From: a virus
Taxonomy: Monodnaviria > Loebvirae > Hofneiviricota > Faserviricetes > Tubulavirales > Inoviridae
Strand: one strand, 5' to 3'
Virus record (IMG/VR): IMGVR_UViG_2923312938_000004
Length of the DNA: 37,945 bases
Below, piece after piece: positions 1 to 34,756 of this stretch. Numbering within the stretch: the first letter of the stretch is position 1; each line of letters opens with the position of its first letter. The position numbers and the translations under genes were made by a program. The notes below the pieces were generated by a model. It was not told where the DNA came from and ran no database searches. It saw only the letters and a list, made by a program, of their open reading frames with translations.

Positions 1-360
1 CTACTTCATTAAACCCAGTGTCAGTTTTCCGAGAATGAAAGCCTTCACCCGGAAGGCAAAATACAGCGACCATGCGCCGGTAATAATATTCAGGCAGACC
101 GGAAGGTTATCCGGAAACAGGCTGGACACGCTGATCCAGACCGGATGCGTGAATACCGGAGAGGTCAGCATCAGGGAAGAAAACTTTTCATTCACGAAGG
201 AAATAAAAACGCTGTAAAACCCATACCAGACCCCGACCGTGGTCAGTGCAATCACGGACTTGAGGAGAAAAAAACGCAGGAGGCACCGGAAAATAAACGG
301 CACCAGAAATATCATCATATCCTTAAAAAAGACGGTCAGTCCCATAAAAACAGCTGGCAT
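1..360 (-). CDS. gVI-like minor virion/membrane protein (119 aa, very hydrophobic)
   Basis: Complete ORF (stop at 1-3, ATG at 358-360) directly downstream of the gIII-like gene with 2-nt spacing. Multi-TM hydrophobic composition and position between gIII and gI as in Ff phages. SD-like GGTAGG upstream. Confidence 0.6.
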   Translation of the reverse strand: MPAVFMGLTVFFKDMMIFLVPFIFRCLLRFFLLKSVIALTTVGVWYGFYSVFISFVNEKFSSLMLTSPVFTHPVWISVSSLFPDNLPVCLNIITGAWSLYFAFRVKAFILGKLTLGLMK

Positions 361-362
361 AT

Positions 363-1691
363 TTACCTACCGGATAATGATTTATCAACCAGGATGACTA
401 ATGACACTGCGGTGATGACATAAATAAAAAAGCGAATAACCTCCCGCAGATAACCGTCATAAATACGACAGACACCTTCCGTGGAGAGATTAAAGGGCAT
501 TTCCTCACCCCCGAAAGGCCGGAATGAAAAACTTAAATCCAGTGGCACACAGACATCCCTGTTATTGCCGAAGAAGCCCTGAGGAATAATGCCGGAAAAA
601 TTAAGCACAGGCACATAATCTTCAATCAGGGGAATAAGTTCCTGAATCCGGTCCTGTACGCCCTGCTCCACTGAACTTATACCGTTCTCAATAATCCCCT
701 GCATAGTGCTGTTAAACTGCGCCTGAGACGAAGAGTAGTTTTTATCCGGCTCTGTCAGTGCGCCAAATTTTTCATCAATGCTGTGTAAATATTTCACCTG
801 CCTTTCTGTCATATAATCCATGGTAACAAGGGTTTTATTCTGAAGTTCAATGTAGCTGCTATGAAAACTGTCAATTTTGTCTCCGATGGCAGGCAGTCCG
901 GCATTCAGCAGATAATATATTTTTCTTCCCCACTCATCAGAAAGACCGTCATCCCCGTTTCCGGTGTTATTATCATTGCCGTCACTCCCGGTATTTCCAC
1001 CACCGGAATTATTACCGCCATCGCTGCCGGAATTATTATCTTCACTACCGTTGTTATCTTCCTCATTACCGTTGTCAGGAACAATTTTCCCGTCCTCAAT
1101 TTTATAACCCTCCCTTAAATAACAGGTGCTGTTATAAAGGTTCTGCCAGCCGGAACCGTTGGGAGTGCAGGAGTAATATTTTGCGTGAGCGCGCAACTCA
1201 GATAAAGGCATAGTTTCCCGCGGGGGATAATATCCTGAAAATGAACCACAGATTAACAGCGGATTATTATCACACTCCTGCCTCCTCAGTGTATCCGCAA
1301 GTTCAAGCAAATAGACAGCAGAAACCTGACCGGATACAGCGTTATCATTATCATCACCGGAACTGTTGTCCCCGTTGCCGCCGGAACTGTTATCCCCGTC
1401 ACCGCCATCACCATCCGAAGGCTCATAAGCTGCCACAGGGATCCAGTTAGTAGCGGCGACATCACCTGTTTCACTGCCAACAATCACACCTGTCGCCATA
1501 TAAATACAGCCATCCACAACAGCATACCATGTATTATCACTGCGAAACGCCCCGGAAAGTGACCCCTGCAGCGCCGGACGGGAAATACAGGCCTCATCAG
1601 ACTCCGTTAAATTAAAAGGCGCAAATGTTCTTGTGAATGACTCAGCAGATGAAAAGAACGGAAGAAATAAAAGCAGAAATAACAGCCGCAT
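363..1691 (-). CDS. gIII-like adsorption (minor coat) protein, 442 aa
   Basis: N-terminal signal peptide MRLLFLLLFLPFFSSA, Cys-containing domains, two Gly/Asn/Asp-rich low-complexity linkers, and a C-terminal membrane anchor (VIRFFIYVITAVSLVILV). Sits immediately after the major coat gene. GAGG SD upstream. Confidence 0.7.
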   Translation of the reverse strand: MRLLFLLLFLPFFSSAESFTRTFAPFNLTESDEACISRPALQGSLSGAFRSDNTWYAVVDGCIYMATGVIVGSETGDVAATNWIPVAAYEPSDGDGGDGDNSSGGNGDNSSGDDNDNAVSGQVSAVYLLELADTLRRQECDNNPLLICGSFSGYYPPRETMPLSELRAHAKYYSCTPNGSGWQNLYNSTCYLREGYKIEDGKIVPDNGNEEDNNGSEDNNSGSDGGNNSGGGNTGSDGNDNNTGNGDDGLSDEWGRKIYYLLNAGLPAIGDKIDSFHSSYIELQNKTLVTMDYMTERQVKYLHSIDEKFGALTEPDKNYSSSQAQFNSTMQGIIENGISSVEQGVQDRIQELIPLIEDYVPVLNFSGIIPQGFFGNNRDVCVPLDLSFSFRPFGGEEMPFNLSTEGVCRIYDGYLREVIRFFIYVITAVSLVILVDKSLSGR

Positions 1692-1704
1692 AATGACCTC
1701 TGAT

Positions 1705-1725
1705 AAAAAAGGGGCGCACGGCCCC
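1705..1725 (-). terminator. Intrinsic terminator between major coat gene and gIII-like gene
   Basis: Minus-strand GC hairpin (aggggccgtgcgcccct) followed by a U-run, located 20 nt after the gVIII stop and 14 nt before the gIII start. Ff phages have a terminator at the equivalent place. Confidence 0.6.
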
Positions 1726-1746
1726 TGTATTATTAATTAAACAGCA

Positions 1747-2022
1747 TCAGGAAGATGCCATTCTGAAGAGGGATTTAACTACGCGGAAACCAATCATTAA
1801 AGAAACGCCAAAGCCCAGTAAAAGAAATGCTGCGGTACCCACCACGCCCAGCGTTGACAAAATGGAGTTCACCACCGGGTCAATCATATCCTGGTTGATA
1901 ACTGCCTGTCCGGGGGTATAACTCACCCCTTCAGCCAGAACAGGACCGGACGCCAGCATCAGGGAAGATGCAATGACCAGAGGTTTTTTTACGAACGTAA
2001 CTGCTTTTTCACGAACAGACAT
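1747..2022 (-). CDS. Major coat protein (gVIII-like), 91-aa precursor
   Basis: ATG at 2022 preceded by AGGAG. Signal peptide ending ...GPVLA, acidic mature N-terminus, a single hydrophobic helix (LGVVGTAAFLLLGFGVSLMIGF) and a basic C-terminus (RVVKSLFR). This is the classic inovirus major capsid architecture. Confidence 0.8.
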   Translation of the reverse strand: MSVREKAVTFVKKPLVIASSLMLASGPVLAEGVSYTPGQAVINQDMIDPVVNSILSTLGVVGTAAFLLLGFGVSLMIGFRVVKSLFRMASS

Positions 2023-2042
2023 AATATATAACTCCTGTATTA

Positions 2043-2201
2043 TTACAAAAAAGATGAAAAAAGTGTTTTCGTCAGGGAAAACACATACCCGAAGCCAAAA
2101 CCGGCAAGCCAGCTGATGGCCCATATACCAAAAAGCGCAACAAGCGGAGGATAAGAACCCACGCCGGATATTGTCACAAGAAAATTTGTCTCAGAAAGCA
2201 T
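2043..2201 (-). CDS. Small hydrophobic virion protein (52 aa), gIX/gVII-like by position
   Basis: Hand-translated MLSETNFLVTISGVGSYPPLVALFGIWAISWLAGFGFGYVFSLTKTLFSSFL. Tightly packed between the 33-aa ORF and the major coat gene, as the small minor coat genes are in Ff phages. Confidence 0.5.
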   Translation of the reverse strand: MLSETNFLVTISGVGSYPPLVALFGIWAISWLAGFGFGYVFSLTKTLFSSFL

Positions 2202-2203
2202 GA

Positions 2204-2305
2204 TTAACGCCTTCCCGTAATGACTCCGCCAATAAAAGCCAGTGAAAATATCAGCACTGGCACAGCACCAAAGAGAATAAGAACGAAAAATTCAGTCGTG
2301 AGCAT
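2204..2305 (-). CDS. Small hydrophobic virion protein (33 aa), gVII/gIX-like
   Basis: Hand-translated MLTTEFFVLILFGAVPVLIFSLAFIGGVITGRR. Size, single TM and position after the ssDNA-binding gene match the Ff minor coat proteins. Confidence 0.5.
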   Translation of the reverse strand: MLTTEFFVLILFGAVPVLIFSLAFIGGVITGRR

Positions 2306-2315
2306 ATTTCAAAAA

Positions 2316-4191
<1,876 letters not shown>

Positions 4192-4473
4192 ATGAAAAAA
4201 GAAACAAAGCGCGGAGACACAACCGTAAGGATTAACGAAAACAGAAAACTGGAGCTAAAACGAAGAGTGCTGGAAATCGGTAATAAAACAGGTGAGCTAC
4301 TAAAACCATCAGAGATAGTAAACCACTTAATAGACAACTACTTAGATGATGCGGTGAAAGATCTAATAAGCAAAGAAGAACTTAAGAAAAAAAGGCAATG
4401 TGATCCCTTTTCCTGCATTCAGCAGACTACCCGCGAAGGATCGAAAGGATACGGTTTAACTGGAAACCCTTGA
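4192..4473 (+). CDS. Ribbon-helix-helix (RHH) DNA-binding regulator; 93 aa in this copy, 70 aa in copies B-E
   Basis: N-terminus TTVRINENRKLELKRRVLEIGNKTGELLKPSEIVNHLIDNYL fits a beta-strand/helix/helix RHH pattern. Divergent from Rep, like rstR versus rstA in CTXphi. Copy A has an A7 run at 4387-4393 where the other four copies have A8, so the 70-aa form ending KKKKAM is the consensus. Confidence 0.6.
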   Translation: MKKETKRGDTTVRINENRKLELKRRVLEIGNKTGELLKPSEIVNHLIDNYLDDAVKDLISKEELKKKRQCDPFSCIQQTTREGSKGYGLTGNP

Positions 4474-4489
4474 GTTTCCGTTGACTCTA

Positions 4490-4516
4490 CCCCCGTGTTA
4501 CAAGACGGGGGTTTTT
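4490..4516 (+). terminator. Intrinsic terminator downstream of the RHH regulator gene
   Basis: Stem cccccgt / acggggg with an 8-nt loop, followed by ttttt. Confidence 0.6.
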
Positions 4517-4705
4517 CTCCCGGCCTGTAACACATCGCTCTCTGATGTTAATGCAGGCGCTCCGCTCCTCGCAGGTTGTCGTTGTCGGCGTCCTCCTCCC
4601 GTCGTCCTTCTTCGCCTCCAACCTGCTGCGGTGCGGTACGACTGGATTAAGGGCGATTCAACTTCGTTACATGGACATTTAAAAAACAAAAGCATGAGGG
4701 GAAGA

Positions 4706-4879
4706 ATGAACAACTGGAGTGAGATCATATTAGACCTGCTGATGAAGCACATAATAGGTGGCGCTGCGATTGGCGTGGCTATCCTGTTGTTTGCCGGAGT
4801 GATTTTTCCTGTTGCGCTGAAGATAAGGAAGCTCACTGGCAGGAAAAAACAGCGAATAAAACAGAAACTCATCAGTTAA
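4706..4879 (+). CDS. Small membrane protein (57 aa) with polybasic C-terminal tail
   Basis: Strong SD GAGGGGAAG before the ATG at 4706. MNNWSEIILDLLMKHIIGGAAIGVAILLFAGVIFPVALKIRKLTGRKKQRIKQKLIS has one TM helix plus a Lys/Arg-rich tail. Intact in all five copies, whereas the upstream part of the long ORF is frame-broken in copy B. Confidence 0.55.
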   Translation: MNNWSEIILDLLMKHIIGGAAIGVAILLFAGVIFPVALKIRKLTGRKKQRIKQKLIS

Positions 4880-4883
4880 GGCC

Positions 4884-4977
4884 AGTGCGCACAATGACGT
4901 TATGTGTAAAAAGGCCGCTGCGGTGGAGAGTATCGCAGCGGCCTTTTCAACATAACGTGTAACACATTATGCGCACT
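4884..4977. other. Putative attP: inverted pair of dif-like XerC/XerD-arm sequences flanking a hairpin
   Basis: Plus strand 4884-4910 AGTGCGCACAA-TGACG-TTATGTGTAAA. Minus strand of 4945-4977 reads AGTGCGCATAA-TGTGTTACACG-TTATGTTGAAA. Compare E. coli dif GGTGCGCATAA-TGTATA-TTATGTTAAAT (recalled from memory). The two sites form a ~100-bp imperfect palindrome. Confidence 0.6.
4907..4947 (+). terminator. Bidirectional intrinsic terminator hairpin at the centre of the attP palindrome
   Basis: aaaaaa-GGCCGCTGCG-gtggagagtat-CGCAGCGGCC-tttt, 28 nt after the stop of the small membrane-protein gene. Confidence 0.6.
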
Positions 4978-5087
4978 GGCGTTGTGGTAGCTGAATTAAG
5001 GTGTCCGTGTGGGTACACAAACCCGGGAGTAAAAAAAGAAAACGCCTTATAACCTGGGAAAGTTATAAAGCGTCCCGGAAAATCCAG
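4976..5087. repeat. Intergenic direct repeat, copy 1 (~110 bp)
   Basis: ctggcgttgtggtagctgaattaaggtgtccgtgtgggtacac...gaaaacgccttataacctgggaaagttataaagcg...ggaaaatccag. About 88 percent identical by eye to 5286-5392. Confidence 0.7.
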
Positions 5088-5285
5088 AAATGGATACAAT
5101 GAAATATCCGTCTCAGTCAACGTAATTTACGTCTCAATCAACGTGATATACGGCCTTAACTGACATTATGTGTCTACTACCTACTCACCCTCACATAGAT
5201 GAGCAGCAAGACTATAACAAGTAAACATTACGGCGGATAACACCTGCAGACCTCTTGTTGAAAATTCCGGCTCAAAAGACGGCCT

Positions 5286-5392
5286 CTGGCGTTGTGATGG
5301 CTGAATTGAGATGTTCGTGTGGGTACACCGGGAAGTAAAAAAGAAAACGCCCTATAACCTGGGAAAGTTATAAGGCGCACTGGAAAATCCAG
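5286..5392. repeat. Intergenic direct repeat, copy 2 (~107 bp)
   Basis: ctggcgttgtgatggctgaattgagatgttcgtgtgggtacac...gaaaacgccctataacctgggaaagttataaggcg...ggaaaatccag. Partner of 4976-5087; part of a larger diverged ~300-bp duplication. Confidence 0.7.
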
Positions 5393-5775
5393 GTAATTAT
5401 GGGATGTACGCGTCTAAACCAACGTTATGTCCGCCTCAGTATGTGCCAGTCCACTGCCACATAACAGAGTGCGCAAATTGTAACGAGTAAAACATTATCG
5501 CCGATAACACATCAGGACCTCTGTTTGAAAATTCCGGCTCAAAAAGACGGCCTGTCAGTCATCAATTCCATCGAACGGCTTCATCAATGACTGTCCGACT
5601 CCCGTCTTGCGCCGCTCGTCTCGCTGGCTGCCCGCTAAAAGGCGGTCTGGCAGGCGGCGCGTTGCGCTGTTTCCTGCTGCTCTGTCATCTCTCCCCGGTT
5701 TCGGCGGGCTGACATCTGCGTCACATGAAACTTCATCATGCCGCCTTACATGTCCTGACGGACATCATCACACAC

Positions 5776-6996
5776 TCAGACCCGCCGGGCCTGAAGAACG
5801 ACGATGATATCGGTTTTCGCACGTTCATCAGAGTCTGAACCAAACACATCCGGCAGAAATGAAAGCCCTGTCCGCGCCTTTGATGTCTTGTTCTCCGCCA
5901 GTCCGCCCAGCACAATGATATCACCGTCATTCAGACTCACCGACGTGGACACCTCGCGCTTTATCAGCGTTGGCGTGTTATTCACCCCCGTATCCGTTTT
6001 TGCAAAGTTACTCAGCTGCTGAACGATATCCAGACCTATCACATCCTGCGTCACGGTGGGTTTTACCCGAAAAATAGCCCCGCTGCTGCGGTATTCCACG
6101 GACTGCACCGGAACCTTATCCTGCCATGACACTGATGACAGAACCGGCACATCAGACCCCACGCTGAAAACCGCCTCCTTACCGGAGATAACGCGCAGAC
6201 GTGGCGAACTGACCACCTGAAAACGGCTGTCGGTCCTGAATAACTCATACATTGCATCAACAGACCCCGTGCTGAGGCGAATAAAGTTATCCAGCCCCGA
6301 TGCGCTGCTCATGGTGATACTGAAACGACCGGATAAAAGCTCTGCGGCCAGCGCCAGACCTGAACCGTTACGCTCACTGGTCTGGACCTCAAACACATAC
6401 CCGGCAACCGAAACCTCCTGTGCCCTGACGTCAATCTGCGGCAGAAGCTGCCGGACAAGCTCAACTTCCCGGGCCGTTCCCCGGAACACAAACACATCCC
6501 CGGATGCACTGATGAACCGGGTACCACTGCTGACCGCCTGCCATGTCTGCTCACCGTTTGCCCCCTGAACCGGCTGTTGTGCGGCCGGAAGCTGACCCAG
6601 ACCGGAAAGCGCCTGATGCAGATACTCCACTGTCCGGTAACGGGGCGTGTAAACAAGGGATTTCAGCGGCTCCTCTGGTGCGGCAGGTGTATGACTGTAA
6701 ATATAATCAACGCCCTTTTTACGGCTTATCCTGATATTCATATTACCGAGATAACGGGTAATAAATTCCCGTTCATCGATATCCGGTGAAATATGCAGCG
6801 TGACGGCCCGCGGGTCATTGACCAGTTCAGGGGCCAGCATGAACGGTGTTTTCAGGACTTCCGTCCAGAGCAGCGTCACCGCATCAGGCAGGCTCATGCG
6901 GTTAATATCCAGTTCCGTCCCGGCTGAAAACGACGGCAGCGGGAATAACAGCGCCATTGCAGGCAGCACCGGGAGAAGTAATTTTCTGATATTCAT
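5776..6996 (-). CDS. Secretin (gIV-like outer-membrane export channel), 406 aa
   Basis: Signal peptide MNIRKLLLPVLPAMALLFPLPSFSA. C-terminus IIVLGGLAENKTSKARTGLSFLPDVFGSDSDERAKTDIIVVLQARRV resembles the conserved secretin/pIV C-terminal block. Last gene of the operon, after gI, as in Ff phages. Confidence 0.75.
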   Translation of the reverse strand: MNIRKLLLPVLPAMALLFPLPSFSAGTELDINRMSLPDAVTLLWTEVLKTPFMLAPELVNDPRAVTLHISPDIDEREFITRYLGNMNIRISRKKGVDYIYSHTPAAPEEPLKSLVYTPRYRTVEYLHQALSGLGQLPAAQQPVQGANGEQTWQAVSSGTRFISASGDVFVFRGTAREVELVRQLLPQIDVRAQEVSVAGYVFEVQTSERNGSGLALAAELLSGRFSITMSSASGLDNFIRLSTGSVDAMYELFRTDSRFQVVSSPRLRVISGKEAVFSVGSDVPVLSSVSWQDKVPVQSVEYRSSGAIFRVKPTVTQDVIGLDIVQQLSNFAKTDTGVNNTPTLIKREVSTSVSLNDGDIIVLGGLAENKTSKARTGLSFLPDVFGSDSDERAKTDIIVVLQARRV

Positions 6997-7005
6997 ATTC
7001 TGTCC

Positions 7006-8262
7006 CTATGGTGTGGTGAGAGAAACGGACATCCCCCCGGCACCGCTGCCGGACGAACGCGACGGGGAAGGTTCACTGCCTGACCCGCTGTGAAACGTGA
7101 TGTGTTCGCCATCCAGTTCCAGTACAGTAAGCAGCCCTTCATACGGCAGTTCACTGCGCACAAGCCGCGTGACGTTGCTGTTACTGCGCAGAATAAAAAC
7201 CCCCTGCCCGTTACCGTCACGCATATGACCGGAAAGCCGCCAGACACGGGAAAGCGGCAGTTCTGCCGGAGATGCGACCTGTGGTACAGGCGGCGCTTTT
7301 TCAGTGGTGATTACCTGTGGTGGTGCCTGCATGACCGTTGCAGCCGGCTCATCAGGTGTGCCGGAGAAAAAATCCAGCACAAGACGTCCCCAGAACCAGA
7401 AAAACAGGCCACCCACCACAACGGACAACAGTTTTTTACGGCGCGCCTGTTGCTGCTCCTTTCGTTCCTCTGCCGTGAAGGTCTGCAAATCCCCTTTCTC
7501 CTGCCGCTCACGCAGCCGCCGGAACTGCCGGAGGGTTCTGCCGGGCAACAGGGAATACATGGCGCGCATATCACAGACCCGCTGATGCTCACCCGTTCCG
7601 AGCAGTTCCATTCCGTCATCAAATACCATGTTTGTCGGATGGATACCGTAAAAGGACGGCGCATAAAAAACGCGGGATTCATTGGGACGGGAATTCGCCC
7701 GGGGAACACCGATATAAATTTTTGCCGAAATCAGGTGCGGCAGAAGCCCTTTCCGGCTGCCCGTATCGCCAAACTTATCCGGCATGCAGAGTTCCAGAAT
7801 ATCGGACACGACCGGGACACGAATACGATCAAGACGACGGCAGCGGACAATCAGCTCACCCGTGGATTTAAATATTTTGCTGTCAACGGCGGATTCATCC
7901 TGCACCTGAATATAAACATCCCAGCCCAGTTTCCCGGACTGTACAAACCATTTGTAATATTCCAGGTATTCCCGGCCGGAAGATGTGCCGTTAAGCCATG
8001 TTCCGACCTCATCCAGAAATAACGCACCAAACCGCTCCTTCTCATTTTCATCACAACCACGCCCCAGCGCCCAGAAATCTTCAGGACGAGGACGGGCCGG
8101 AAGCACGGTCAACGGATGCGATGAAGCCGGGTCCATTTTTTCAGTATCAAGCGGGTAATTTGCCGCAATTCTGTGTCCGCGACGGTAAAACTGTTTTGCC
8201 ACCATGGAGCAGAACAGCCCCTTCCCGTTGCGCATTTTTCCTGTCACCCAGTAAACAGCCAT
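7006..8262 (-). CDS. gI/Zot-like assembly NTPase (inner-membrane morphogenesis protein), 418 aa
   Basis: N-terminal P-loop-like motif VTGKMRNGKG (compare fd pI GKLGAGKT), a central TM segment (LLSVVVGGLFFWFWGRLVL) and a Pro-rich periplasmic tail. Sits between gVI and gIV. C-terminal length is uncertain: a C6 run at 7025-7030 gives 418 aa, a C5 run (copy C) gives 422 aa. Confidence 0.7.
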   Translation of the reverse strand: MAVYWVTGKMRNGKGLFCSMVAKQFYRRGHRIAANYPLDTEKMDPASSHPLTVLPARPRPEDFWALGRGCDENEKERFGALFLDEVGTWLNGTSSGREYLEYYKWFVQSGKLGWDVYIQVQDESAVDSKIFKSTGELIVRCRRLDRIRVPVVSDILELCMPDKFGDTGSRKGLLPHLISAKIYIGVPRANSRPNESRVFYAPSFYGIHPTNMVFDDGMELLGTGEHQRVCDMRAMYSLLPGRTLRQFRRLRERQEKGDLQTFTAEERKEQQQARRKKLLSVVVGGLFFWFWGRLVLDFFSGTPDEPAATVMQAPPQVITTEKAPPVPQVASPAELPLSRVWRLSGHMRDGNGQGVFILRSNSNVTRLVRSELPYEGLLTVLELDGEHITFHSGSGSEPSPSRSSGSGAGGMSVSLTTP

Positions 8263-8269
8263 AACACCC

Positions 8270-8629
8270 CTACTTCATTAAACCCAGTGTCAGTTTTCCG
8301 AGAATGAAAGCCTTCACCCGGAAGGCAAAATACAGCGACCATGCGCCGGTAATAATATTCAGGCAGACCGGAAGGTTATCCGGAAACAGGCTGGACACGC
8401 TGATCCAGACCGGATGCGTGAATACCGGAGAGGTCAGCATCAGGGAAGAAAACTTTTCATTCACGAAGGAAATAAAAACGCTGTAAAACCCATACCAGAC
8501 CCCGACCGTGGTCAGTGCAATCACGGACTTGAGGAGAAAAAAACGCAGGAGGCACCGGAAAATAAACGGCACCAGAAATATCATCATATCCTTAAAAAAG
8601 ACGGTCAGTCCCATAAAAACAGCTGGCAT
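8270..8629 (-). CDS. gVI-like minor virion/membrane protein (copy B)
   Basis: Identical 119-aa translation to copy A. Confidence 0.6.
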   Translation of the reverse strand: MPAVFMGLTVFFKDMMIFLVPFIFRCLLRFFLLKSVIALTTVGVWYGFYSVFISFVNEKFSSLMLTSPVFTHPVWISVSSLFPDNLPVCLNIITGAWSLYFAFRVKAFILGKLTLGLMK

Positions 8630-8631
8630 AT

Positions 8632-9960
8632 TTACCTACCGGATAATGATTTATCAACCAGGATGACTAATGACACTGCGGTGATGACATAAATAAAAAA
8701 GCGAATAACCTCCCGCAGATAACCGTCATAAATACGACAGACACCTTCCGTGGAGAGATTAAAGGGCATTTCCTCACCCCCGAAAGGCCGGAATGAAAAA
8801 CTTAAATCCAGTGGCACACAGACATCCCTGTTATTGCCGAAGAAGCCCTGAGGAATAATGCCGGAAAAATTAAGCACAGGCACATAATCTTCAATCAGGG
8901 GAATAAGTTCCTGAATCCGGTCCTGTACGCCCTGCTCCACTGAACTTATACCGTTCTCAATAATCCCCTGCATAGTGCTGTTAAACTGCGCCTGAGACGA
9001 AGAGTAGTTTTTATCCGGCTCTGTCAGTGCGCCAAATTTTTCATCAATGCTGTGTAAATATTTCACCTGCCTTTCTGTCATATAATCCATGGTAACAAGG
9101 GTTTTATTCTGAAGTTCAATGTAGCTGCTATGAAAACTGTCAATTTTGTCTCCGATGGCAGGCAGTCCGGCATTCAGCAGATAATATATTTTTCTTCCCC
9201 ACTCATCAGAAAGACCGTCATCCCCGTTTCCGGTGTTATTATCATTGCCGTCACTCCCGGTATTTCCACCACCGGAATTATTACCGCCATCGCTGCCGGA
9301 ATTATTATCTTCACTACCGTTGTTATCTTCCTCATTACCGTTGTCAGGAACAATTTTCCCGTCCTCAATTTTATAACCCTCCCTTAAATAACAGGTGCTG
9401 TTATAAAGGTTCTGCCAGCCGGAACCGTTGGGAGTGCAGGAGTAATATTTTGCGTGAGCGCGCAACTCAGATAAAGGCATAGTTTCCCGCGGGAGATAAT
9501 ATCCTGAAAATGAACCACAGATTAACAGCGGATTATTATCACACTCCTGCCTCCTCAGTGTATCCGCAAGTTCAAGCAAATAGACAGCAGAAACCTGACC
9601 GGATACAGCGTTATCATTATCATCACCGGAACTGTTGTCCCCGTTGCCGCCGGAACTGTTATCCCCGTCACCGCCATCACCATCCGAAGGCTCATAAGCT
9701 GCCACAGGGATCCAGTTAGTAGCGGCGACATCACCTGTTTCACTGCCAACAATCACACCTGTCGCCATATAAATACAGCCATCCACAACAGCATACCATG
9801 TATTATCACTGCGAAACGCCCCGGAAAGTGACCCCTGCAGCGCCGGACGGGAAATACAGGCCTCATCAGACTCCGTTAAATTAAAAGGCGCAAATGTTCT
9901 TGTGAATGACTCAGCAGATGAAAAGAACGGAAGAAATAAAAGCAGAAATAACAGCCGCAT
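8632..9960 (-). CDS. gIII-like adsorption protein (copy B), 442 aa
   Basis: Same as copy A except one residue (GYYLPRE versus GYYPPRE) caused by a G-to-A difference at 9486. Confidence 0.7.
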   Translation of the reverse strand: MRLLFLLLFLPFFSSAESFTRTFAPFNLTESDEACISRPALQGSLSGAFRSDNTWYAVVDGCIYMATGVIVGSETGDVAATNWIPVAAYEPSDGDGGDGDNSSGGNGDNSSGDDNDNAVSGQVSAVYLLELADTLRRQECDNNPLLICGSFSGYYLPRETMPLSELRAHAKYYSCTPNGSGWQNLYNSTCYLREGYKIEDGKIVPDNGNEEDNNGSEDNNSGSDGGNNSGGGNTGSDGNDNNTGNGDDGLSDEWGRKIYYLLNAGLPAIGDKIDSFHSSYIELQNKTLVTMDYMTERQVKYLHSIDEKFGALTEPDKNYSSSQAQFNSTMQGIIENGISSVEQGVQDRIQELIPLIEDYVPVLNFSGIIPQGFFGNNRDVCVPLDLSFSFRPFGGEEMPFNLSTEGVCRIYDGYLREVIRFFIYVITAVSLVILVDKSLSGR

Positions 9961-10015
9961 AATGACCTCTGATAAAAAAGGGGCGCACGGCCCCTGTATT
10001 ATTAATTAAACAGCA

Positions 10016-10291
10016 TCAGGAAGATGCCATTCTGAAGAGGGATTTAACTACGCGGAAACCAATCATTAAAGAAACGCCAAAGCCCAGTAAAAGAAATGCT
10101 GCGGTACCCACCACGCCCAGCGTTGACAAAATGGAGTTCACCACCGGGTCAATCATATCCTGGTTGATAACTGCCTGTCCGGGGGTATAACTCACCCCTT
10201 CAGCCAGAACAGGACCGGACGCCAGCATCAGGGAAGATGCAATGACCAGAGGTTTTTTTACGAACGTAACTGCTTTTTCACGAACAGACAT
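10016..10291 (-). CDS. Major coat protein (copy B)
   Basis: Identical to copy A at offset 8269. Confidence 0.8.
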   Translation of the reverse strand: MSVREKAVTFVKKPLVIASSLMLASGPVLAEGVSYTPGQAVINQDMIDPVVNSILSTLGVVGTAAFLLLGFGVSLMIGFRVVKSLFRMASS

Positions 10292-10311
10292 AATATATAA
10301 CTCCTGTATTA

Positions 10312-10470
10312 TTACAAAAAAGATGAAAAAAGTGTTTTCGTCAGGGAAAACACATACCCGAAGCCAAAACCGGCAAGCCAGCTGATGGCCCATATACCAA
10401 AAAGCGCAACAAGCGGAGGATAAGAACCCACGCCGGATATTGTCACAAGAAAATTTGTCTCAGAAAGCAT
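10312..10470 (-). CDS. Small hydrophobic virion protein, 52 aa (copy B)
   Basis: Coordinates from copy A plus 8269; flanking ORFs map at the same offset. Confidence 0.45.
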   Translation of the reverse strand: MLSETNFLVTISGVGSYPPLVALFGIWAISWLAGFGFGYVFSLTKTLFSSFL

Positions 10471-10472
10471 GA

Positions 10473-10574
10473 TTAACGCCTTCCCGTAATGACTCCGCCA
10501 ATAAAAGCCAGTGAAAATATCAGCACTGGCACAGCACCAAAGAGAATAAGAACGAAAAATTCAGTCGTGAGCAT
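10473..10574 (-). CDS. Small hydrophobic virion protein, 33 aa (copy B)
   Basis: ATG (cat on plus) verified at 10572-10574. Confidence 0.45.
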   Translation of the reverse strand: MLTTEFFVLILFGAVPVLIFSLAFIGGVITGRR

Positions 10575-10584
10575 ATTTCAAAAA

Positions 10585-12341
<1,757 letters not shown>

Positions 12342-12459
12342 TTACCGCATGCGCGCATCATAATCACATTTAACACGTGTTGTAAATACGCATGCGCTAT
12401 GCGGGTGTAAAAAAATGGAATAATCACCTTCTATTGAAAGGACATAGAGGTAAATTTTG

Positions 12460-12672
12460 ATGAAAAAAGAAACAAAGCGCGGAGACACAACCGTAAGGAT
12501 TAACGAAAACAGAAAACTGGAGCTAAAACGAAGAGTGCTGGAAATCGGTAATAAAACAGGTGAGCTACTAAAACCATCAGAGATAGTAAACCACTTAATA
12601 GACAACTACTTAGATGATGCGGTGAAAGATCTAATAAGCAAAGAAGAACTTAAGAAAAAAAAGGCAATGTGA
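12460..12672 (+). CDS. RHH DNA-binding regulator, 70 aa (copy B, consensus form)
   Basis: A8 run gives stop after ...KKKKAM. Confidence 0.6.
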   Translation: MKKETKRGDTTVRINENRKLELKRRVLEIGNKTGELLKPSEIVNHLIDNYLDDAVKDLISKEELKKKKAM

Positions 12673-12973
12673 TCCCTTTTCCTGCATTCAGCAGACTACC
12701 CGCGAAGGATCGAAAGGATACGGTTTAACTGGAAACCCTTGAGTTTCCGTTGACTCTACCCCCGTGTTACAAGACGGGGGTTTTTCTCCCGGCCTGTAAC
12801 ACATCGCTCTCTGATGTTAATGCAGGCGCTCCGCTCCTCGCAGGTTGTCGTTGTCGGCGTCCTCCTCCCGTCGTCCTTCTTCGCCTCCAACCTGCTGCGG
12901 TGCGGTACGACTGGATTAAGGGCGATTCAACTTCGTTACATGGACATTTAAAAACAAAAGCATGAGGGGAAGA

Positions 12974-13147
12974 ATGAACAACTGGAGTGAGATCATATTA
13001 GACCTGCTGATGAAGCACATAATAGGTGGCGCTGCGATTGGCGTGGCTATCCTGTTGTTTGCCGGAGTGATTTTTCCTGTTGCGCTGAAGATAAGGAAGC
13101 TCACTGGCAGGAAAAAACAGCGAATAAAACAGAAACTCATCAGTTAA
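12974..13147 (+). CDS. Small membrane protein with polybasic tail (copy B)
   Basis: ATG at 12974 after GAGGGGAAG; identical 57 aa. Confidence 0.55.
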   Translation: MNNWSEIILDLLMKHIIGGAAIGVAILLFAGVIFPVALKIRKLTGRKKQRIKQKLIS

Positions 13148-13151
13148 GGCC

Positions 13152-13245
13152 AGTGCGCACAATGACGTTATGTGTAAAAAGGCCGCTGCGGTGGAGAGTA
13201 TCGCAGCGGCCTTTTCAACATAACGTGTAACACATTATGCGCACT
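13152..13245. other. Putative attP dif-like inverted pair (copy B)
   Basis: Same sequence as 4884-4977. Confidence 0.6.
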
Positions 13246-14042
13246 GGCGTTGTGGTAGCTGAATTAAGGTGTCCGTGTGGGTACACAAACCCGGGAGTAA
13301 AAAAAGAAAACGCCTTATAACCTGGGAAAGTTATAAAGCGTCCCGGAAAATCCAGAAATGGATACAATGAAATATCCGTCTCAGTCAACGTAATTTACGT
13401 CTCAATCAACGTGATATACGGCCTTAACTGACATTATGTGTCTACTACCTACTCACCCTCACATAGATGAGCAGCAAGACTATAACAAGTAAACATTACG
13501 GCGGATAACACCTGCAGACCTCTTGTTGAAAATTCCGGCTCAAAAGACGGCCTCTGGCGTTGTGATGGCTGAATTGAGATGTTCGTGTGGGTACACCGGG
13601 AAGTAAAAAGAAAACGCCCTATAACCTGGGAAAGTTATAAGGCGCACTGGAAAATCCAGGTAATTATGGGATGTACGCGTCTAAACCAACGTTATGTCCG
13701 CCTCAGTATGTGCCAGTCCACTGCCACATAACAGAGTGCGCAAATTGTAACGAGTAAAACATTATCGCCGATAACACATCAGGACCTCTGTTTGAAAATT
13801 CCGGCTCAAAAAGACGGCCTGTCAGTCATCAATTCCATCGAACGGCTTCATCAATGACTGTCCGACTCCCGTCTTGCGCCGCTCGTCTCGCTGGCTGCCC
13901 GCTAAAAGGCGGTCTGGCAGGCGGCGCGTTGCGCTGTTTCCTGCTGCTCTGTCATCTCTCCCCGGTTTCGGCGGGCTGACATCTGCGTCACATGAAACTT
14001 CATCATGCCGCCTTACATGTCCTGACGGACATCATCACACAC

Positions 14043-15263
14043 TCAGACCCGCCGGGCCTGAAGAACGACGATGATATCGGTTTTCGCACGTTCATCAGAG
14101 TCTGAACCAAACACATCCGGCAGAAATGAAAGCCCTGTCCGCGCCTTTGATGTCTTGTTCTCCGCCAGTCCGCCCAGCACAATGATATCACCGTCATTCA
14201 GACTCACCGACGTGGACACCTCGCGCTTTATCAGCGTTGGCGTGTTATTCACCCCCGTATCCGTTTTTGCAAAGTTACTCAGCTGCTGAACGATATCCAG
14301 ACCTATCACATCCTGCGTCACGGTGGGTTTTACCCGAAAAATAGCCCCGCTGCTGCGGTATTCCACGGACTGCACCGGAACCTTATCCTGCCATGACACT
14401 GATGACAGAACCGGCACATCAGACCCCACGCTGAAAACCGCCTCCTTACCGGAGATAACGCGCAGACGTGGCGAACTGACCACCTGAAAACGGCTGTCGG
14501 TCCTGAATAACTCATACATTGCATCAACAGACCCCGTGCTGAGGCGAATAAAGTTATCCAGCCCCGATGCGCTGCTCATGGTGATACTGAAACGACCGGA
14601 TAAAAGCTCTGCGGCCAGCGCCAGACCTGAACCGTTACGCTCACTGGTCTGGACCTCAAACACATACCCGGCAACCGAAACCTCCTGTGCCCTGACGTCA
14701 ATCTGCGGCAGAAGCTGCCGGACAAGCTCAACTTCCCGGGCCGTTCCCCGGAACACAAACACATCCCCGGATGCACTGATGAACCGGGTACCACTGCTGA
14801 CCGCCTGCCATGTCTGCTCACCGTTTGCCCCCTGAACCGGCTGTTGTGCGGCCGGAAGCTGACCCAGACCGGAAAGCGCCTGATGCAGATACTCCACTGT
14901 CCGGTAACGGGGCGTGTAAACAAGGGATTTCAGCGGCTCCTCTGGTGCGGCAGGTGTATGACTGTAAATATAATCAACGCCCTTTTTACGGCTTATCCTG
15001 ATATTCATATTACCGAGATAACGGGTAATAAATTCCCGTTCATCGATATCCGGTGAAATATGCAGCGTGACGGCCCGCGGGTCATTGACCAGTTCAGGGG
15101 CCAGCATGAACGGTGTTTTCAGGACTTCCGTCCAGAGCAGCGTCACCGCATCAGGCAGGCTCATGCGGTTAATATCCAGTTCCGTCCCGGCTGAAAACGA
15201 CGGCAGCGGGAATAACAGCGCCATTGCAGGCAGCACCGGGAGAAGTAATTTTCTGATATTCAT
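14043..15263 (-). CDS. Secretin gIV-like (copy B)
   Basis: Identical 406-aa translation. Confidence 0.75.
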   Translation of the reverse strand: MNIRKLLLPVLPAMALLFPLPSFSAGTELDINRMSLPDAVTLLWTEVLKTPFMLAPELVNDPRAVTLHISPDIDEREFITRYLGNMNIRISRKKGVDYIYSHTPAAPEEPLKSLVYTPRYRTVEYLHQALSGLGQLPAAQQPVQGANGEQTWQAVSSGTRFISASGDVFVFRGTAREVELVRQLLPQIDVRAQEVSVAGYVFEVQTSERNGSGLALAAELLSGRFSITMSSASGLDNFIRLSTGSVDAMYELFRTDSRFQVVSSPRLRVISGKEAVFSVGSDVPVLSSVSWQDKVPVQSVEYRSSGAIFRVKPTVTQDVIGLDIVQQLSNFAKTDTGVNNTPTLIKREVSTSVSLNDGDIIVLGGLAENKTSKARTGLSFLPDVFGSDSDERAKTDIIVVLQARRV

Positions 15264-16527
15264 ATTCTGTCCCTATGGTGTGGTGAGAGAAACGGACATC
15301 CCCCGGCACCGCTGCCGGACGAACGCGACGGGGAAGGTTCACTGCCTGACCCGCTGTGAAACGTGATGTGTTCGCCATCCAGTTCCAGTACAGTAAGCAG
15401 CCCTTCATACGGCAGTTCACTGCGCACAAGCCGCGTGACGTTGCTGTTACTGCGCAGAATAAAAACCCCCTGCCCGTTACCGTCACGCATATGACCGGAA
15501 AGCCGCCAGACACGGGAAAGCGGCAGTTCTGCCGGAGATGCGACCTGTGGTACAGGCGGCGCTTTTTCAGTGGTGATTACCTGTGGTGGTGCCTGCATGA
15601 CCGTTGCAGCCGGCTCATCAGGTGTGCCGGAGAAAAAATCCAGCACAAGACGTCCCCAGAACCAGAAAACAGGCCACCCACCACAACGGACAACAGTTTT
15701 TTACGGCGCGCCTGTTGCTGCTCCTTTCGTTCCTCTGCCGTGAAGGTCTGCAAATCCCCTTTCTCCTGCCGCTCACGCAGCCGCCGGAACTGCCGGAGGG
15801 TTCTGCCGGGCAACAGGGAATACATGGCGCGCATATCACAGACCCGCTGATGCTCACCCGTTCCGAGCAGTTCCATTCCGTCATCAAATACCATGTTTGT
15901 CGGATGGATACCGTAAAAGGACGGCGCATAAAAAACGCGGGATTCATTGGGACGGGAATTCGCCCGGGGAACACCGATATAAATTTTTGCCGAAATCAGG
16001 TGCGGCAGAAGCCCTTTCCGGCTGCCCGTATCGCCAAACTTATCCGGCATGCAGAGTTCCAGAATATCGGACACGACCGGGACACGAATACGATCAAGAC
16101 GACGGCAGCGGACAATCAGCTCACCCGTGGATTTAAATATTTTGCTGTCAACGGCGGATTCATCCTGCACCTGAATATAAACATCCCAGCCCAGTTTCCC
16201 GGACTGTACAAACCATTTGTAATATTCCAGGTATTCCCGGCCGGAAGATGTGCCGTTAAGCCATGTTCCGACCTCATCCAGAAATAACGCACCAAACCGC
16301 TCCTTCTCATTTTCATCACAACCACGCCCCAGCGCCCAGAAATCTTCAGGACGAGGACGGGCCGGAAGCACGGTCAACGGATGCGATGAAGCCGGGTCCA
16401 TTTTTTCAGTATCAAGCGGGTAATTTGCCGCAATTCTGTGTCCGCGACGGTAAAACTGTTTTGCCACCATGGAGCAGAACAGCCCCTTCCCGTTGCGCAT
16501 TTTTCCTGTCACCCAGTAAACAGCCAT
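15260..16527 (-). pseudogene. gI/Zot-like assembly NTPase, frame-broken in this copy
   Basis: Split into a 316-aa N-terminal ORF (15577-16527) and a 128-aa C-terminal ORF (15260-15646). The A-run at about 15661-15664 is one A shorter than copy A (cagaaaacaggcc versus cagaaaaacaggcc). Probably a homopolymer sequencing error. Confidence 0.6.
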
Positions 16528-16534
16528 AACACCC

Positions 16535-16893
16535 CTACTTCATTAAACCCAGTGTCAGTTTTCCGAGAATGAAAGCCTTCACCCGGAAGGCAAAATACAG
16601 CGACCATGCGCCGGTAATAATATTCAGGCAGACCGGAAGGTTATCCGGAAACAGGCTGGACACGCTGATCCAGACCGGATGCGTGAATACCGGAGAGGTC
16701 AGCATCAGGGAAGAAAACTTTTCATTCACGAAGGAAATAAAAACGCTGTAAAACCCATACCAGACCCCGACCGTGGTCAGTGCAATCACGGACTTGAGGA
16801 GAAAAAACGCAGGAGGCACCGGAAAATAAACGGCACCAGAAATATCATCATATCCTTAAAAAAGACGGTCAGTCCCATAAAAACAGCTGGCAT
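16535..16893 (-). pseudogene. gVI-like protein, frame-broken N-terminal region (copy C)
   Basis: 94-aa ORF only (16535-16819). The A-run at about 16802 is one shorter than in the other copies. Confidence 0.5.
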
Positions 16894-16895
16894 AT

Positions 16896-18221
16896 TTACC
16901 TACCGGATAATGATTTATCAACCAGGATGACTAATGACACTGCGGTGATGACATAAATAAAAAAGCGAATAACCTCCCGCAGATAACCGTCATAAATACG
17001 ACAGACACCTTCCGTGGAGAGATTAAAGGGCATTTCCTCACCCCCGAAAGGCCGGAATGAAAAACTTAAATCCAGTGGCACACAGACATCCCTGTTATTG
17101 CCGAAGAAGCCCTGAGGAATAATGCCGGAAAAATTAAGCACAGGCACATAATCTTCAATCAGGGGAATAAGTTCCTGAATCCGGTCCTGTACGCCCTGCT
17201 CCACTGAACTTATACCGTTCTCAATAATCCCCTGCATAGTGCTGTTAAACTGCGCCTGAGACGAAGAGTAGTTTTTATCCGGCTCTGTCAGTGCGCCAAA
17301 TTTTTCATCAATGCTGTGTAAATATTTCACCTGCCTTTCTGTCATATAATCCATGTAACAAGGGTTTTATTCTGAAGTTCAATGTAGCTGCTATGAAAAC
17401 TGTCAATTTTGTCTCCGATGCAGGCAGTCCGGCATTCAGCAGATAATATATTTTCTTCCCCACTCATCAGAAAGACCGTCATCCCCGTTTCCGGTGTTAT
17501 TATCATTGCCGTCACTCCCGGTATTTCCACCACCGGAATTATTACCGCCATCGCTGCCGGAATTATTATCTTCACTACCGTTGTTATCTTCCTCATTACC
17601 GTTGTCAGGAACAATTTTCCCGTCCTCAATTTTATAACCCTCCCTTAAATAACAGGTGCTGTTATAAAGGTTCTGCCAGCCGGAACCGTTGGGAGTGCAG
17701 GAGTAATATTTTGCGTGAGCGCGCAACTCAGATAAAGGCATAGTTTCCCGCGGGAGATAATATCCTGAAAATGAACCACAGATTAACAGCGGATTATTAT
17801 CACACTCCTGCCTCCTCAGTGTATCCGCAAGTTCAAGCAAATAGACAGCAGAAACCTGACCGGATACAGCGTTATCATTATCATCACCGGAACTGTTGTC
17901 CCCGTTGCCGCCGGAACTGTTATCCCCGTCACCGCCATCACCATCCGAAGGCTCATAAGCTGCCACAGGGATCCAGTTAGTAGCGGCGACATCACCTGTT
18001 TCACTGCCAACAATCACACCTGTCGCCATATAAATACAGCCATCCACAACAGCATACCATGTATTATCACTGCGAAACGCCCCGGAAAGTGACCCCTGCA
18101 GCGCCGGACGGGAAATACAGGCCTCATCAGACTCCGTTAAATTAAAAGGCGCAAATGTTCTTGTGAATGACTCAGCAGATGAAAAGAACGGAAGAAATAA
18201 AAGCAGAAATAACAGCCGCAT
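16896..18221 (-). pseudogene. gIII-like adsorption protein, multiple frameshifts (copy C)
   Basis: Broken into 152-, 95- and 261-aa ORFs by 1-nt deletions near 17355 (ccatgtaac versus ccatggtaac), 17420 and 17455. Confidence 0.6.
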
Positions 18222-18730: not shown

Positions 18731-18732
18731 GA

Positions 18733-25160: not shown

Positions 25161-26487
25161 TTACCTACCGGATAATGATTTATCAACCAGGATGACTAAT
25201 GACACTGCGGTGATGACATAAATAAAAAAGCGAATAACCTCCCGCAGATAACCGTCATAAATACGACAGACACCTTCCGTGGAGAGATTAAAGGGCATTT
25301 CCTCACCCCCGAAAGGCCGGAATGAAAAACTTAAATCCAGTGGCACACAGACATCCCTGTTATTGCCGAAGAAGCCCTGAGGAATAATGCCGGAAAAATT
25401 AAGCACAGGCACATAATCTTCAATCAGGGGAATAAGTTCCTGAATCCGGTCCTGTACGCCCTGCTCCACTGAACTTATACCGTTCTCAATAATCCCCTGC
25501 ATAGTGCTGTTAAACTGCGCCTGAGACGAAGAGTAGTTTTTATCCGGCTCTGTCAGTGCGCCAAATTTTTCATCAATGCTGTGTAAATATTTCACCTGCC
25601 TTTCTGTCATATAATCCATGGTAACAAGGGTTTTATTCTGAAGTTCAATGTAGCTGCTATGAAAACTGTCAATTTTGTCTCCGATGGCAGGCAGTCCGGC
25701 ATTCAGCAGATAATATATTTTCTTCCCCACTCATCAGAAAGACCGTCATCCCCGTTTCCGGTGTTATTATCATTGCCGTCACTCCCGGTATTTCCACCAC
25801 CGGAATTATTACCGCCATCGCTGCCGGAATTATTATCTTCACTACCGTTGTTATCTTCCTCATTACCGTTGTCAGGAACAATTTTCCCGTCCTCAATTTT
25901 ATAACCCTCCCTTAAATAACAGGTGCTGTTATAAAGGTTCTGCCAGCCGGAACCGTTGGGAGTGCAGGAGTAATATTTTGCGTGAGCGCGCAACTCAGAT
26001 AAAGGCATAGTTTCCCGCGGGGATAATATCCTGAAAATGAACCACAGATTAACAGCGGATTATTATCACACTCCTGCCTCCTCAGTGTATCCGCAAGTTC
26101 AAGCAAATAGACAGCAGAAACCTGACCGGATACAGCGTTATCATTATCATCACCGGAACTGTTGTCCCCGTTGCCGCCGGAACTGTTATCCCCGTCACCG
26201 CCATCACCATCCGAAGGCTCATAAGCTGCCACAGGGATCCAGTTAGTAGCGGCGACATCACCTGTTTCACTGCCAACAATCACACCTGTCGCCATATAAA
26301 TACAGCCATCCACAACAGCATACCATGTATTATCACTGCGAAACGCCCCGGAAAGTGACCCCTGCAGCGCCGGACGGGAAATACAGGCCTCATCAGACTC
26401 CGTTAAATTAAAAGGCGCAAATGTTCTTGTGAATGACTCAGCAGATGAAAAGAACGGAAGAAATAAAAGCAGAAATAACAGCCGCAT
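25161..26487 (-). pseudogene. gIII-like adsorption protein, frameshifted (copy D)
   Basis: Broken into 189-, 101- and 191-aa ORFs by 1-nt deletions (T-run near 25717; G-run near 26019, cgcggggataa versus cgcgggggataa). Confidence 0.6.
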
Positions 26488-33427: not shown

Positions 33428-34756
33428 TTACCTACCGGATAATGATTTATCAACCAGGATGACTAATGACACTGCGGTGATGACATAAATAAAAAAGCGA
33501 ATAACCTCCCGCAGATAACCGTCATAAATACGACAGACACCTTCCGTGGAGAGATTAAAGGGCATTTCCTCACCCCCGAAAGGCCGGAATGAAAAACTTA
33601 AATCCAGTGGCACACAGACATCCCTGTTATTGCCGAAGAAGCCCTGAGGAATAATGCCGGAAAAATTAAGCACAGGCACATAATCTTCAATCAGGGGAAT
33701 AAGTTCCTGAATCCGGTCCTGTACGCCCTGCTCCACTGAACTTATACCGTTCTCAATAATCCCCTGCATAGTGCTGTTAAACTGCGCCTGAGACGAAGAG
33801 TAGTTTTTATCCGGCTCTGTCAGTGCGCCAAATTTTTCATCAATGCTGTGTAAATATTTCACCTGCCTTTCTGTCATATAATCCATGGTAACAAGGGTTT
33901 TATTCTGAAGTTCAATGTAGCTGCTATGAAAACTGTCAATTTTGTCTCCGATGGCAGGCAGTCCGGCATTCAGCAGATAATATATTTTTCTTCCCCACTC
34001 ATCAGAAAGACCGTCATCCCCGTTTCCGGTGTTATTATCATTGCCGTCACTCCCGGTATTTCCACCACCGGAATTATTACCGCCATCGCTGCCGGAATTA
34101 TTATCTTCACTACCGTTGTTATCTTCCTCATTACCGTTGTCAGGAACAATTTTCCCGTCCTCAATTTTATAACCCTCCCTTAAATAACAGGTGCTGTTAT
34201 AAAGGTTCTGCCAGCCGGAACCGTTGGGAGTGCAGGAGTAATATTTTGCGTGAGCGCGCAACTCAGATAAAGGCATAGTTTCCCGCGGGGGATAATATCC
34301 TGAAAATGAACCACAGATTAACAGCGGATTATTATCACACTCCTGCCTCCTCAGTGTATCCGCAAGTTCAAGCAAATAGACAGCAGAAACCTGACCGGAT
34401 ACAGCGTTATCATTATCATCACCGGAACTGTTGTCCCCGTTGCCGCCGGAACTGTTATCCCCGTCACCGCCATCACCATCCGAAGGCTCATAAGCTGCCA
34501 CAGGGATCCAGTTAGTAGCGGCGACATCACCTGTTTCACTGCCAACAATCACACCTGTCGCCATATAAATACAGCCATCCACAACAGCATACCATGTATT
34601 ATCACTGCGAAACGCCCCGGAAAGTGACCCCTGCAGCGCCGGACGGGAAATACAGGCCTCATCAGACTCCGTTAAATTAAAAGGCGCAAATGTTCTTGTG
34701 AATGACTCAGCAGATGAAAAGAACGGAAGAAATAAAAGCAGAAATAACAGCCGCAT
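33428..34756 (-). CDS. gIII-like adsorption protein (copy E), 442 aa
   Basis: Identical to copy A. Confidence 0.7.
   Translation of the reverse strand: MRLLFLLLFLPFFSSAESFTRTFAPFNLTESDEACISRPALQGSLSGAFRSDNTWYAVVDGCIYMATGVIVGSETGDVAATNWIPVAAYEPSDGDGGDGDNSSGGNGDNSSGDDNDNAVSGQVSAVYLLELADTLRRQECDNNPLLICGSFSGYYPPRETMPLSELRAHAKYYSCTPNGSGWQNLYNSTCYLREGYKIEDGKIVPDNGNEEDNNGSEDNNSGSDGGNNSGGGNTGSDGNDNNTGNGDDGLSDEWGRKIYYLLNAGLPAIGDKIDSFHSSYIELQNKTLVTMDYMTERQVKYLHSIDEKFGALTEPDKNYSSSQAQFNSTMQGIIENGISSVEQGVQDRIQELIPLIEDYVPVLNFSGIIPQGFFGNNRDVCVPLDLSFSFRPFGGEEMPFNLSTEGVCRIYDGYLREVIRFFIYVITAVSLVILVDKSLSGR

Follow-up and report, generated by a model that had tools for sequence, protein, structure and literature searches.

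The attachment protein g3p (pIII) of the Ff phages (M13/fd/f1; structures 1g3p, 2g3p and 8b3o) consists of three modules separated by two flexible linkers of (E)GGGS repeats and ends in a Cys...Cys pair followed by a hydrophobic anchor; the genes lie in the order VIII-III-VI-I-IV. In the non-integrating phage If1 (Infulavirus If1, NP_047356; N1-TolA complex 2x9a), g3p has the order signal peptide, N1, linker, N2, linker and C-terminal domain, with an N2 of ~170 aa that binds I pili. UPphi, IKe and I2-2 represent enterobacterial inovirus prophages that occur as tandem repeats at dif; g3p is their most variable protein, with the variation concentrated in a repeat-encoded linker (PMC7307601). CTXphi, YpfPhi and CUS-1 form XerCD-dependent dif arrays, homogeneous or mixed, and carry a dif-like attP. 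Here we analysed a 37,945-base stretch of DNA (the window; IMG/VR record IMGVR_UViG_2923312938_000004, Inoviridae), in which an 8.27-kb inovirus prophage is repeated head to tail, and focused on its gene III homologue at 363..1691 on the minus strand. An initial annotation of this gene had proposed a gIII-like adsorption protein with two acidic linkers and a Pro-to-Leu difference between copies that may be real receptor-binding variation. The best overall explanation, which we hold to be highly probable, is that the gene belongs to a dif array of enterotoxigenic E. coli (ETEC), that it encodes an ordinary g3p, and that the Leu residue is an assembly error.

By its sequence, the product of 363..1691 is a g3p-family attachment protein with the ordinary g3p architecture. 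Pfam PF05357 (Phage_Coat_A, g3p N1) matched residues 3-72 at 40.5 bits (E 2.4e-10), above its curated threshold of 20.8, and PDB sequences of fd g3p (2g3p, E 2.5e-7) and, with the family profile, of If1 N1 (2x9a, E 9.5e-9) were also matched. The hhalign probability was 97.9% for If1 g3p and 94.9% for M13 g3p, with N1 alone aligning in both, and a tblastn search of deposited phages with the protein gave the If1 N1 as the sole match. The protein also matched phrog_8482, 'attachment protein' (E 1.8e-16). The identical protein of strain TW10573 is named 'phage attachment protein, G3P family' in RefSeq, and the g3p of strain E24377A 'Attachment protein G3P N-terminal domain-containing protein' in UniRef; NCBIfam assigned no family to it. 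The gene is preceded by the major coat gene and followed by the gVI, gI and gIV morphogenesis genes, the canonical position for a g3p-family gene, and the initial call of a gIII-like adsorption protein is borne out. The following parts were distinguished in the protein.

1641..1691, minus strand: predicted signal peptide, residues 1-17 MRLLFLLLFLPFFSSAE, from alignment with the If1 g3p signal peptide and inspection
1416..1640, minus strand: N1 domain, ~residues 18-92, homologous to the TolA-binding N1 of fd/If1 g3p
1341..1412, minus strand: linker 1, residues 94-117
1074..1340, minus strand: N2 domain, residues 118-206, with cysteines 140, 148, 175 and 190
945..1073, minus strand: linker 2, residues 207-249
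366..944, minus strand: C-terminal domain, residues 250-442, predicted mostly helical

The best N1 sequence relative was If1 g3p (~39% identity across 87 aligned columns, signal peptide included); it is on this alignment, together with inspection, that the hydrophobic N-terminus MRLLFLLLFLPFFSSA is predicted to be a signal peptide. The order of modules is also that of If1, and the linkers are of the same Asn/Asp/Gly/Ser kind ('GSGNGGDDNSSGGGSNGDSGNNS' in If1). In contrast, N2 and the C-terminal domain showed no detectable sequence similarity to those of If1, N2 is only ~90 aa long with four cysteines, and the present element is a dif-integrated prophage. With Ff pIII the protein shares a homologous N1, the three modules with two flexible linkers, and the gene order. 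N1 cysteines Cys35 and Cys62 were invariant in the homologue alignment, whereas there is no counterpart to the second disulfide in the N1 of Ff. The C-terminal domain was not alignable with that of Ff by sequence, but it carries Cys381 and Cys408 and then a hydrophobic anchor at 421-435 (FFIYVITAVSLVILV, nt 387-431) with a short polar tail, as in Ff, and the positions of this cysteine pair and anchor were invariant or nearly so across 19 homologues. The full-length AlphaFold2 (AF2) model was poor, with a mean predicted local distance difference test score (pLDDT) of 42 and values of 30-40 in the C-terminal domain, too poor for fold comparison. The protein itself is an uncharacterised addition to a known protein type.

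Self-comparison of the window gave 4.6 head-to-tail copies of a unit of ~8,270 bp, which were 99.9% identical to one another. The copies and their gene III homologues are as follows.

1-8269: copy A
8270-16534: copy B
16535-24798: copy C
24799-33065: copy D
33066-37945: copy E, a partial unit
363..1691, minus strand: gene III homologue (g3p/pIII) of copy A, 442 aa
8632..9960, minus strand: gene III of copy B, full length, Leu156 (= WP_126133616.1)
16896..18221, minus strand: gene III of copy C, Leu156 and three 1-nt deletions, first stop at codon 262 (WP_250186164.1, 261 aa)
25161..26487, minus strand: gene III of copy D, a 1-nt deletion in the G run and one more deletion, first stop at codon 192 (WP_250186167.1, 191 aa)
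33428..34756, minus strand: gene III of copy E, full length, Pro156, identical to copy A
1222..1226: G5 homopolymer (coding-strand CCC CC) that holds the Pro156 codon

Alignment of the five copies revealed 13 variable columns, 12 of them 1-nt deletions; the remaining column (1225) holds G, A or a deletion. The base is G at 1225 in copy A and at 34290 in copy E, and A at 9494 in copy B and at 17755 in copy C, which in the coding-strand context TAT CCC CCG changes CCC (Pro156) to CTC (Leu). In copy D the same G run is 1 nt shorter (GGGG, 26019-26022), and g3p is frameshifted. The copy alignment thereby confirmed the reading of GGGGG in copies A and E and GGGAG in copies B and C, and also its description as the only non-indel difference, since it was the sole substitution among the variable columns; the positions originally given for it (1216, 9486, 17746 and 34276) were wrong, and the deletion in copy D had gone unnoticed. 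Homopolymers of at least 5 nt contained 11 of the 13 variable columns, though they form only 3.8% of the unit (binomial p ~2e-14). Over the array as a whole there were 17 copy-specific deviations (0.45 per kb), of which 15 were 1-nt deletions. Some deletions were common to neighbouring copies, that at 920 to C and D and that at 7034 to B and C; the sharing of Leu by B and C is therefore not special to the substitution. If all copy differences, indels included, were real, the array would consist of decaying, partly defective prophages and Leu156 would be one neutral lesion among many. There is a precedent in dif arrays for defective filamentous prophage copies that carry premature gene III stops (PMC7307601, section 4.1). 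Decay should, however, yield mainly substitutions across all contexts and not single-base deletions concentrated in homopolymers, and the arrays of this phage in three other assemblies hold identical copies encoding identical proteins; we find decay of this kind scarcely credible.

The sequences outside the window pointed the same way. At all 13 variable columns the independent assemblies CP025881, CP127035 and CP025865 agreed mutually and with the remaining window copies, and had Pro at residue 156, so that the deviations were private to the window. Gene III of copy A was nucleotide-identical to the WP_001716536.1 genes of polished ETEC genomes, and the only difference of the whole copy from the references was one missing A (A8 to A7 at 4386), which lengthens a 70-aa open reading frame (ORF; WP_000712390.1 in the references) to 94 aa. 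Pro was present in 5/5 g3p copies examined across E24377A (NC_009801), CP025881 and CP127035. A 100-mer carrying the Leu allele gave no 100% match among 5,426 complete E. coli genomes (none at 37 places in 17 genomes). An exact look-up in ~15 billion proteins gave 32 contigs with the Pro protein against a single one, of 4,911,268 bp, with the Leu protein; a look-up of contigs encoding the Leu variant had none on record. The Leu-bearing contig also encodes fragments of 261 aa and 191 aa, which are the exact frameshifted products of copies C and D. The window thus comes from that assembly, and the Leu allele, known nowhere else, was not found independently of it. Because one homopolymer column holds three states in five copies, the other differences are all 1-nt deletions, mostly in homopolymers, the reference assemblies agree against deviations private to the window, and Leu is confined to a single contig where Pro is found elsewhere, Pro156Leu most likely stems from a long-read assembly that was not fully polished, as a consensus error in a G5 run. 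The scattered 1-nt deletions most likely have the same origin.

Several points weigh against this explanation. The technical origin was judged from assembled sequences. The Pro/Leu difference is a substitution while all other deviations are deletions, and it is found in two adjacent copies, as expected of a real mutation copied via tandem duplication. Residue 156 was naturally variable in the homologue alignment (P, E, K, D, N, I or L) beside an invariant Pro157, so that Leu would probably be tolerated there. As regards the protein, hhalign with a shallow profile (Neff 1.6) gave no match of the C-terminal domain to pIII of Ff or If1 at the sequence level, and TolA binding by N1 and the receptor role of N2 are deduced purely from homology and architecture. 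A genuine Pro156Leu would have arisen in one copy and spread to its neighbour when the prophage was duplicated in tandem or re-integrated; the array would then encode two N2 variants, which might differ in receptor binding. Besides being the sole substitution of the array and common to the adjacent copies B and C, it falls in a locally variable part of N2, the presumed receptor-binding domain, and heterogeneous dif arrays do exist (PMC7307601). But the site is a G5 run in which the same base is deleted in copy D, the Leu-carrying copy C is frameshifted within the same gene, and the allele was present in no other genome searched. Moreover, if the other copy-specific 1-nt deletions were real, copy B would lack an intact pI and copy D an intact g3p, and copy C would lack both, along with intact coat and gVI-like genes; such multi-gene breakage is unlikely given the uniform sister arrays. 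We regard a genuine substitution as improbable, and the proposal of real receptor-binding variation is not upheld.

With a consensus error as the preferred explanation, the negative result is itself useful: an apparent amino-acid difference between tandem prophage copies is here best read as homopolymer noise, and the RefSeq entry WP_126133616.1 as well as the 191-aa and 261-aa fragments are probably artefacts. Separately, g3p of E24377A (locus L001, 7669-8997) was compared with that of the window and differed by one substitution outside homopolymers (nt 994 G to A, Gly332Arg). In this Sanger-era genome the change looks genuine, and it illustrates real variation in gene III.

The two linkers had been described as acidic and different in composition from the Gly/Ser-rich linkers of Ff pIII, with repetitive, slippage-prone DNA. 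Both quoted linker strings were exact, at residues 94-117 (nt 1341-1412) and 207-249 (nt 945-1073). Linker 1 comprises 33% G, 29% D, 21% N and 17% S with a net charge of -7, and linker 2 comprises 30% N, 30% G, 16% D, 12% S and 7% E with a net charge of -10. Both are at least 87% G/S/N/D/E and are predicted to be disordered (AF2 pLDDT 25-33), as befits flexible linkers. The contrast with Ff is real, since M13 linkers contain 60-67% Gly plus Glu and Ser with no Asn or Asp, whereas Gly makes up 30-33% here and (E)GGGS repeats were not found. The linkers are nevertheless not distinctive, because If1 and other inovirus g3p-like proteins carry N/D/G/S/T-rich ones. In If1 g3p, 'ADGSGNGGDDNSSGGGSNGDSGNNS' follows N1 and 'GSNGSGGSGGSGGSGNDGGGTGNNGNGTG' precedes the C-terminal domain. 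Across distant g3p-like proteins drawn from 1.84 billion representatives, the residues G, S, T, N, D and E were mixed in every proportion, up to almost pure Asn/Gly tracts. Judged by composition, the Asn/Asp/Gly linkers are a lineage habit common to If1 and nothing new.

A functional novelty of these linkers, such as metal binding or receptor contact in place of passive tethering, was also considered. Both are strongly acidic, and their composition is kept from E. coli to Edwardsiella homologues. On the other hand, the same linker type occurs in If1 g3p, linker lengths and sequences vary freely among close homologues, and the predicted disorder of both segments would fit passive tethers better. 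A library study of inovirus receptor-binding proteins, moreover, defined linkers by the generic residues G, E, N, T, D, S and P (PMC12477597). We therefore consider such a function very improbable.

At the DNA level, linker 1 contains one 24-nt tandem duplication (1357-1404), and in linker 2 the 12-nt sequence CCGGAATTATTA occurs twice without mismatch in direct orientation, 24 nt apart (1003-1014 and 1027-1038), but there is no tandem array; the DNA is thus only mildly repetitive. Among the E. coli homologues, in-frame indels of 1, 4 or 6 residues were seen in linker 1 and of 8 residues in linker 2, and the 8-residue deletion corresponds to the 24-nt spacing of the 12-nt repeat. These in-frame indels at direct repeats make slippage or short-repeat recombination plausible over evolutionary time. 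Within the window, however, no linker length difference was found among the five copies, so that slippage proneness is borne out by natural homologues and by nothing in the array. Variation of g3p linkers by repeats has been reported for IKe and UPphi (PMC7307601). The presence of nested spurious ORFs on both strands over the linker DNA was confirmed (861..1118, 964..1107 and 1241..1450 on the plus strand; 905..1099 and 1286..1483 on the minus strand), and they are a mechanical result of the biased composition.

The structure of N2 was predicted separately. The AlphaFold model of this ~90-aa, four-cysteine domain was fairly confident (pLDDT 87), yet it had no significant structural neighbour in PDB, Ff N2 included, or in BFVD, and the F-pilus-binding N2 fold of the Ff type was thus not recognised. 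Only ~6 distinct relatives of N2 were found among the 1.84 billion protein representatives. A profile search with the N2 alignment gave no matches, not even its own source proteins, and is hence uninformative. By analogy, N2 is presumed to be the domain that binds the primary receptor. Among the E. coli homologues (alignment A1), N1, N2 and the N-terminal part of the C-terminal domain occurred as discrete alleles in different combinations, for example 'ELQNKTLVTMDYMTERQVKYLHS' versus the shorter 'TQSGITSDYLAA'; homologue P0015 combines the window-type N1 with another N2, and P0014 shows the opposite combination. These combinations suggest that modules have been exchanged at or near the linkers. 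Further, N2 could represent an unclassified receptor-binding fold of enterobacterial inoviruses, a cassette swapped at the linker boundaries that would recognise a structure other than the F, I or N pilus, possibly an ETEC-associated pilus. We put this forward tentatively and consider it rather doubtful; if true, the specificity surface would include the variable stretch near residue 156, and a genuine Pro/Leu change in it could matter, however rare. A domain with no recognisable structural relative may also interest those who engineer the host range of filamentous phages.

In all likelihood, the g3p described here functions as other g3p proteins do. On the model of the Ff and If1 proteins, the signal peptide would export the protein and the C-terminal hydrophobic segment would anchor it in the inner membrane, and the C-terminal domain together with the adjacent pVI-like protein would cap the terminating end of the virion. 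The four-cysteine N2 would bind the primary receptor, presumably a pilus, after which N1, judging by its homology, would engage TolA. The two acidic disordered linkers probably serve as tethers between these modules, and short direct repeats may let their lengths drift through in-frame loss or duplication.

The unit was 100% identical to prophages in the ETEC genomes E24377A, 503440, 504211, 503829 and TW10573, and prophages 95-99% identical to it were present in other E. coli genomes. Matches to the unit occurred in 82 of the 5,426 complete E. coli genomes, with coverage of at least 80% in 11. In complete genomes the prophage is located at chromosomal dif, between the ydeQRS fimbrial cluster and hipBA. 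In E24377A, CP025881 and CP127035, dif with 1 mismatch to the 28-bp consensus borders the prophage on one side, and on the other lies a dif-like site that has 7-8 mismatches and a conserved XerC arm. A dif-like attP, AGTGCGCATAATGTGTTACACGTTATGT, with 8 mismatches to E. coli dif and a conserved XerC-side arm, lies at 4950-4977 on the minus strand of the window and is repeated in every window copy; its equivalents in E24377A (locus L001) are at 3987-4014 and 12257-12284. The location at dif and the dif-like attP indicate XerCD-dependent integration, and the tandem arrangement is in keeping with it, as tandem dif arrays are a known habit of XerCD-dependent inoviruses (PMC7307601). Arrays of at least two copies were present in three of the prophage-carrying assemblies. 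A rolling-circle or assembly concatemer was rejected as the source of the window, given that the copy-specific products lie on a 4.9-Mb contig and that sister genomes carry chromosomal arrays. The window is accordingly a chromosomal tandem array at dif of an ETEC-type E. coli, exact copy number aside.

Strain 504211 (NZ_CP025865.1, locus L004, 8600-41200) carries a mixed dif array, with two copies of this phage followed by two of a relative. In the relative, the structural and assembly genes are 96-98% identical, whereas the replication module is different (a phage/plasmid replication protein and a single-stranded-DNA-binding protein) and so is the g3p allele (WP_126133736.1).

None of 50,697 deposited phage records matched the unit by megablast, the closest pI in deposited phages was 30-32% identical, and no account of this particular prophage turned up in the literature searched. 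The lineage is an ETEC-associated inovirus lineage with no isolated representative. Identity with the UPphi phages was rejected, as these are 7.56 kb long and IKe-like with GGGES linkers, and in the IKe-like lineage the order of the receptor and TolA domains is reversed (PMC7307601); the likeness lies in the occurrence of enterobacterial inovirus prophages as dif tandem repeats. CTXphi, YpfPhi and CUS-1 resemble the present element in their arrays and attP, but their proteins are unrelated or distant.

Each unit carries a full inovirus gene set on the minus strand, in the canonical order Rep_trans, ssDNA-binding-like gene, coat, gIII, gVI-like, Zot (pI) and secretin (pIV). The genes other than gene III are listed below for the first unit.

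2661-3887, minus strand: Rep_trans replication initiator
Between Rep_trans and the coat gene in minus-strand order: small ssDNA-binding-like gene
1747..2022, minus strand: major coat protein, gene VIII-like, 91-aa precursor, directly upstream of gene III
1..360, minus strand: gene VI-like minor coat protein, 119 aa, directly downstream of gene III (phrog_27651, with a weak phrog_1944 match)
7006-8262, minus strand: Zot/pI homologue
5776-6996, minus strand: secretin/pIV homologue

No toxin cargo was recognised in the prophage, and an Rfam scan of one unit matched no RNA family. G+C content was 54-60% over the pI and pIV genes (window 5600-8000) as compared to 37-47% over the replication/regulatory module (2000-4400), a contrast that points to a mosaic origin of the two genome halves. 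The large non-coding region by attP (window 4976-5544) contains an imperfect direct duplication of ~300 nt, with segments 84-88% identical and 267-310 nt apart, and each copy of the duplication includes a near-palindromic hairpin, CGCCTTATAACCTGGGAAAGTTATAAGGCG. This duplicated hairpin region might be an origin, packaging or integration structure.

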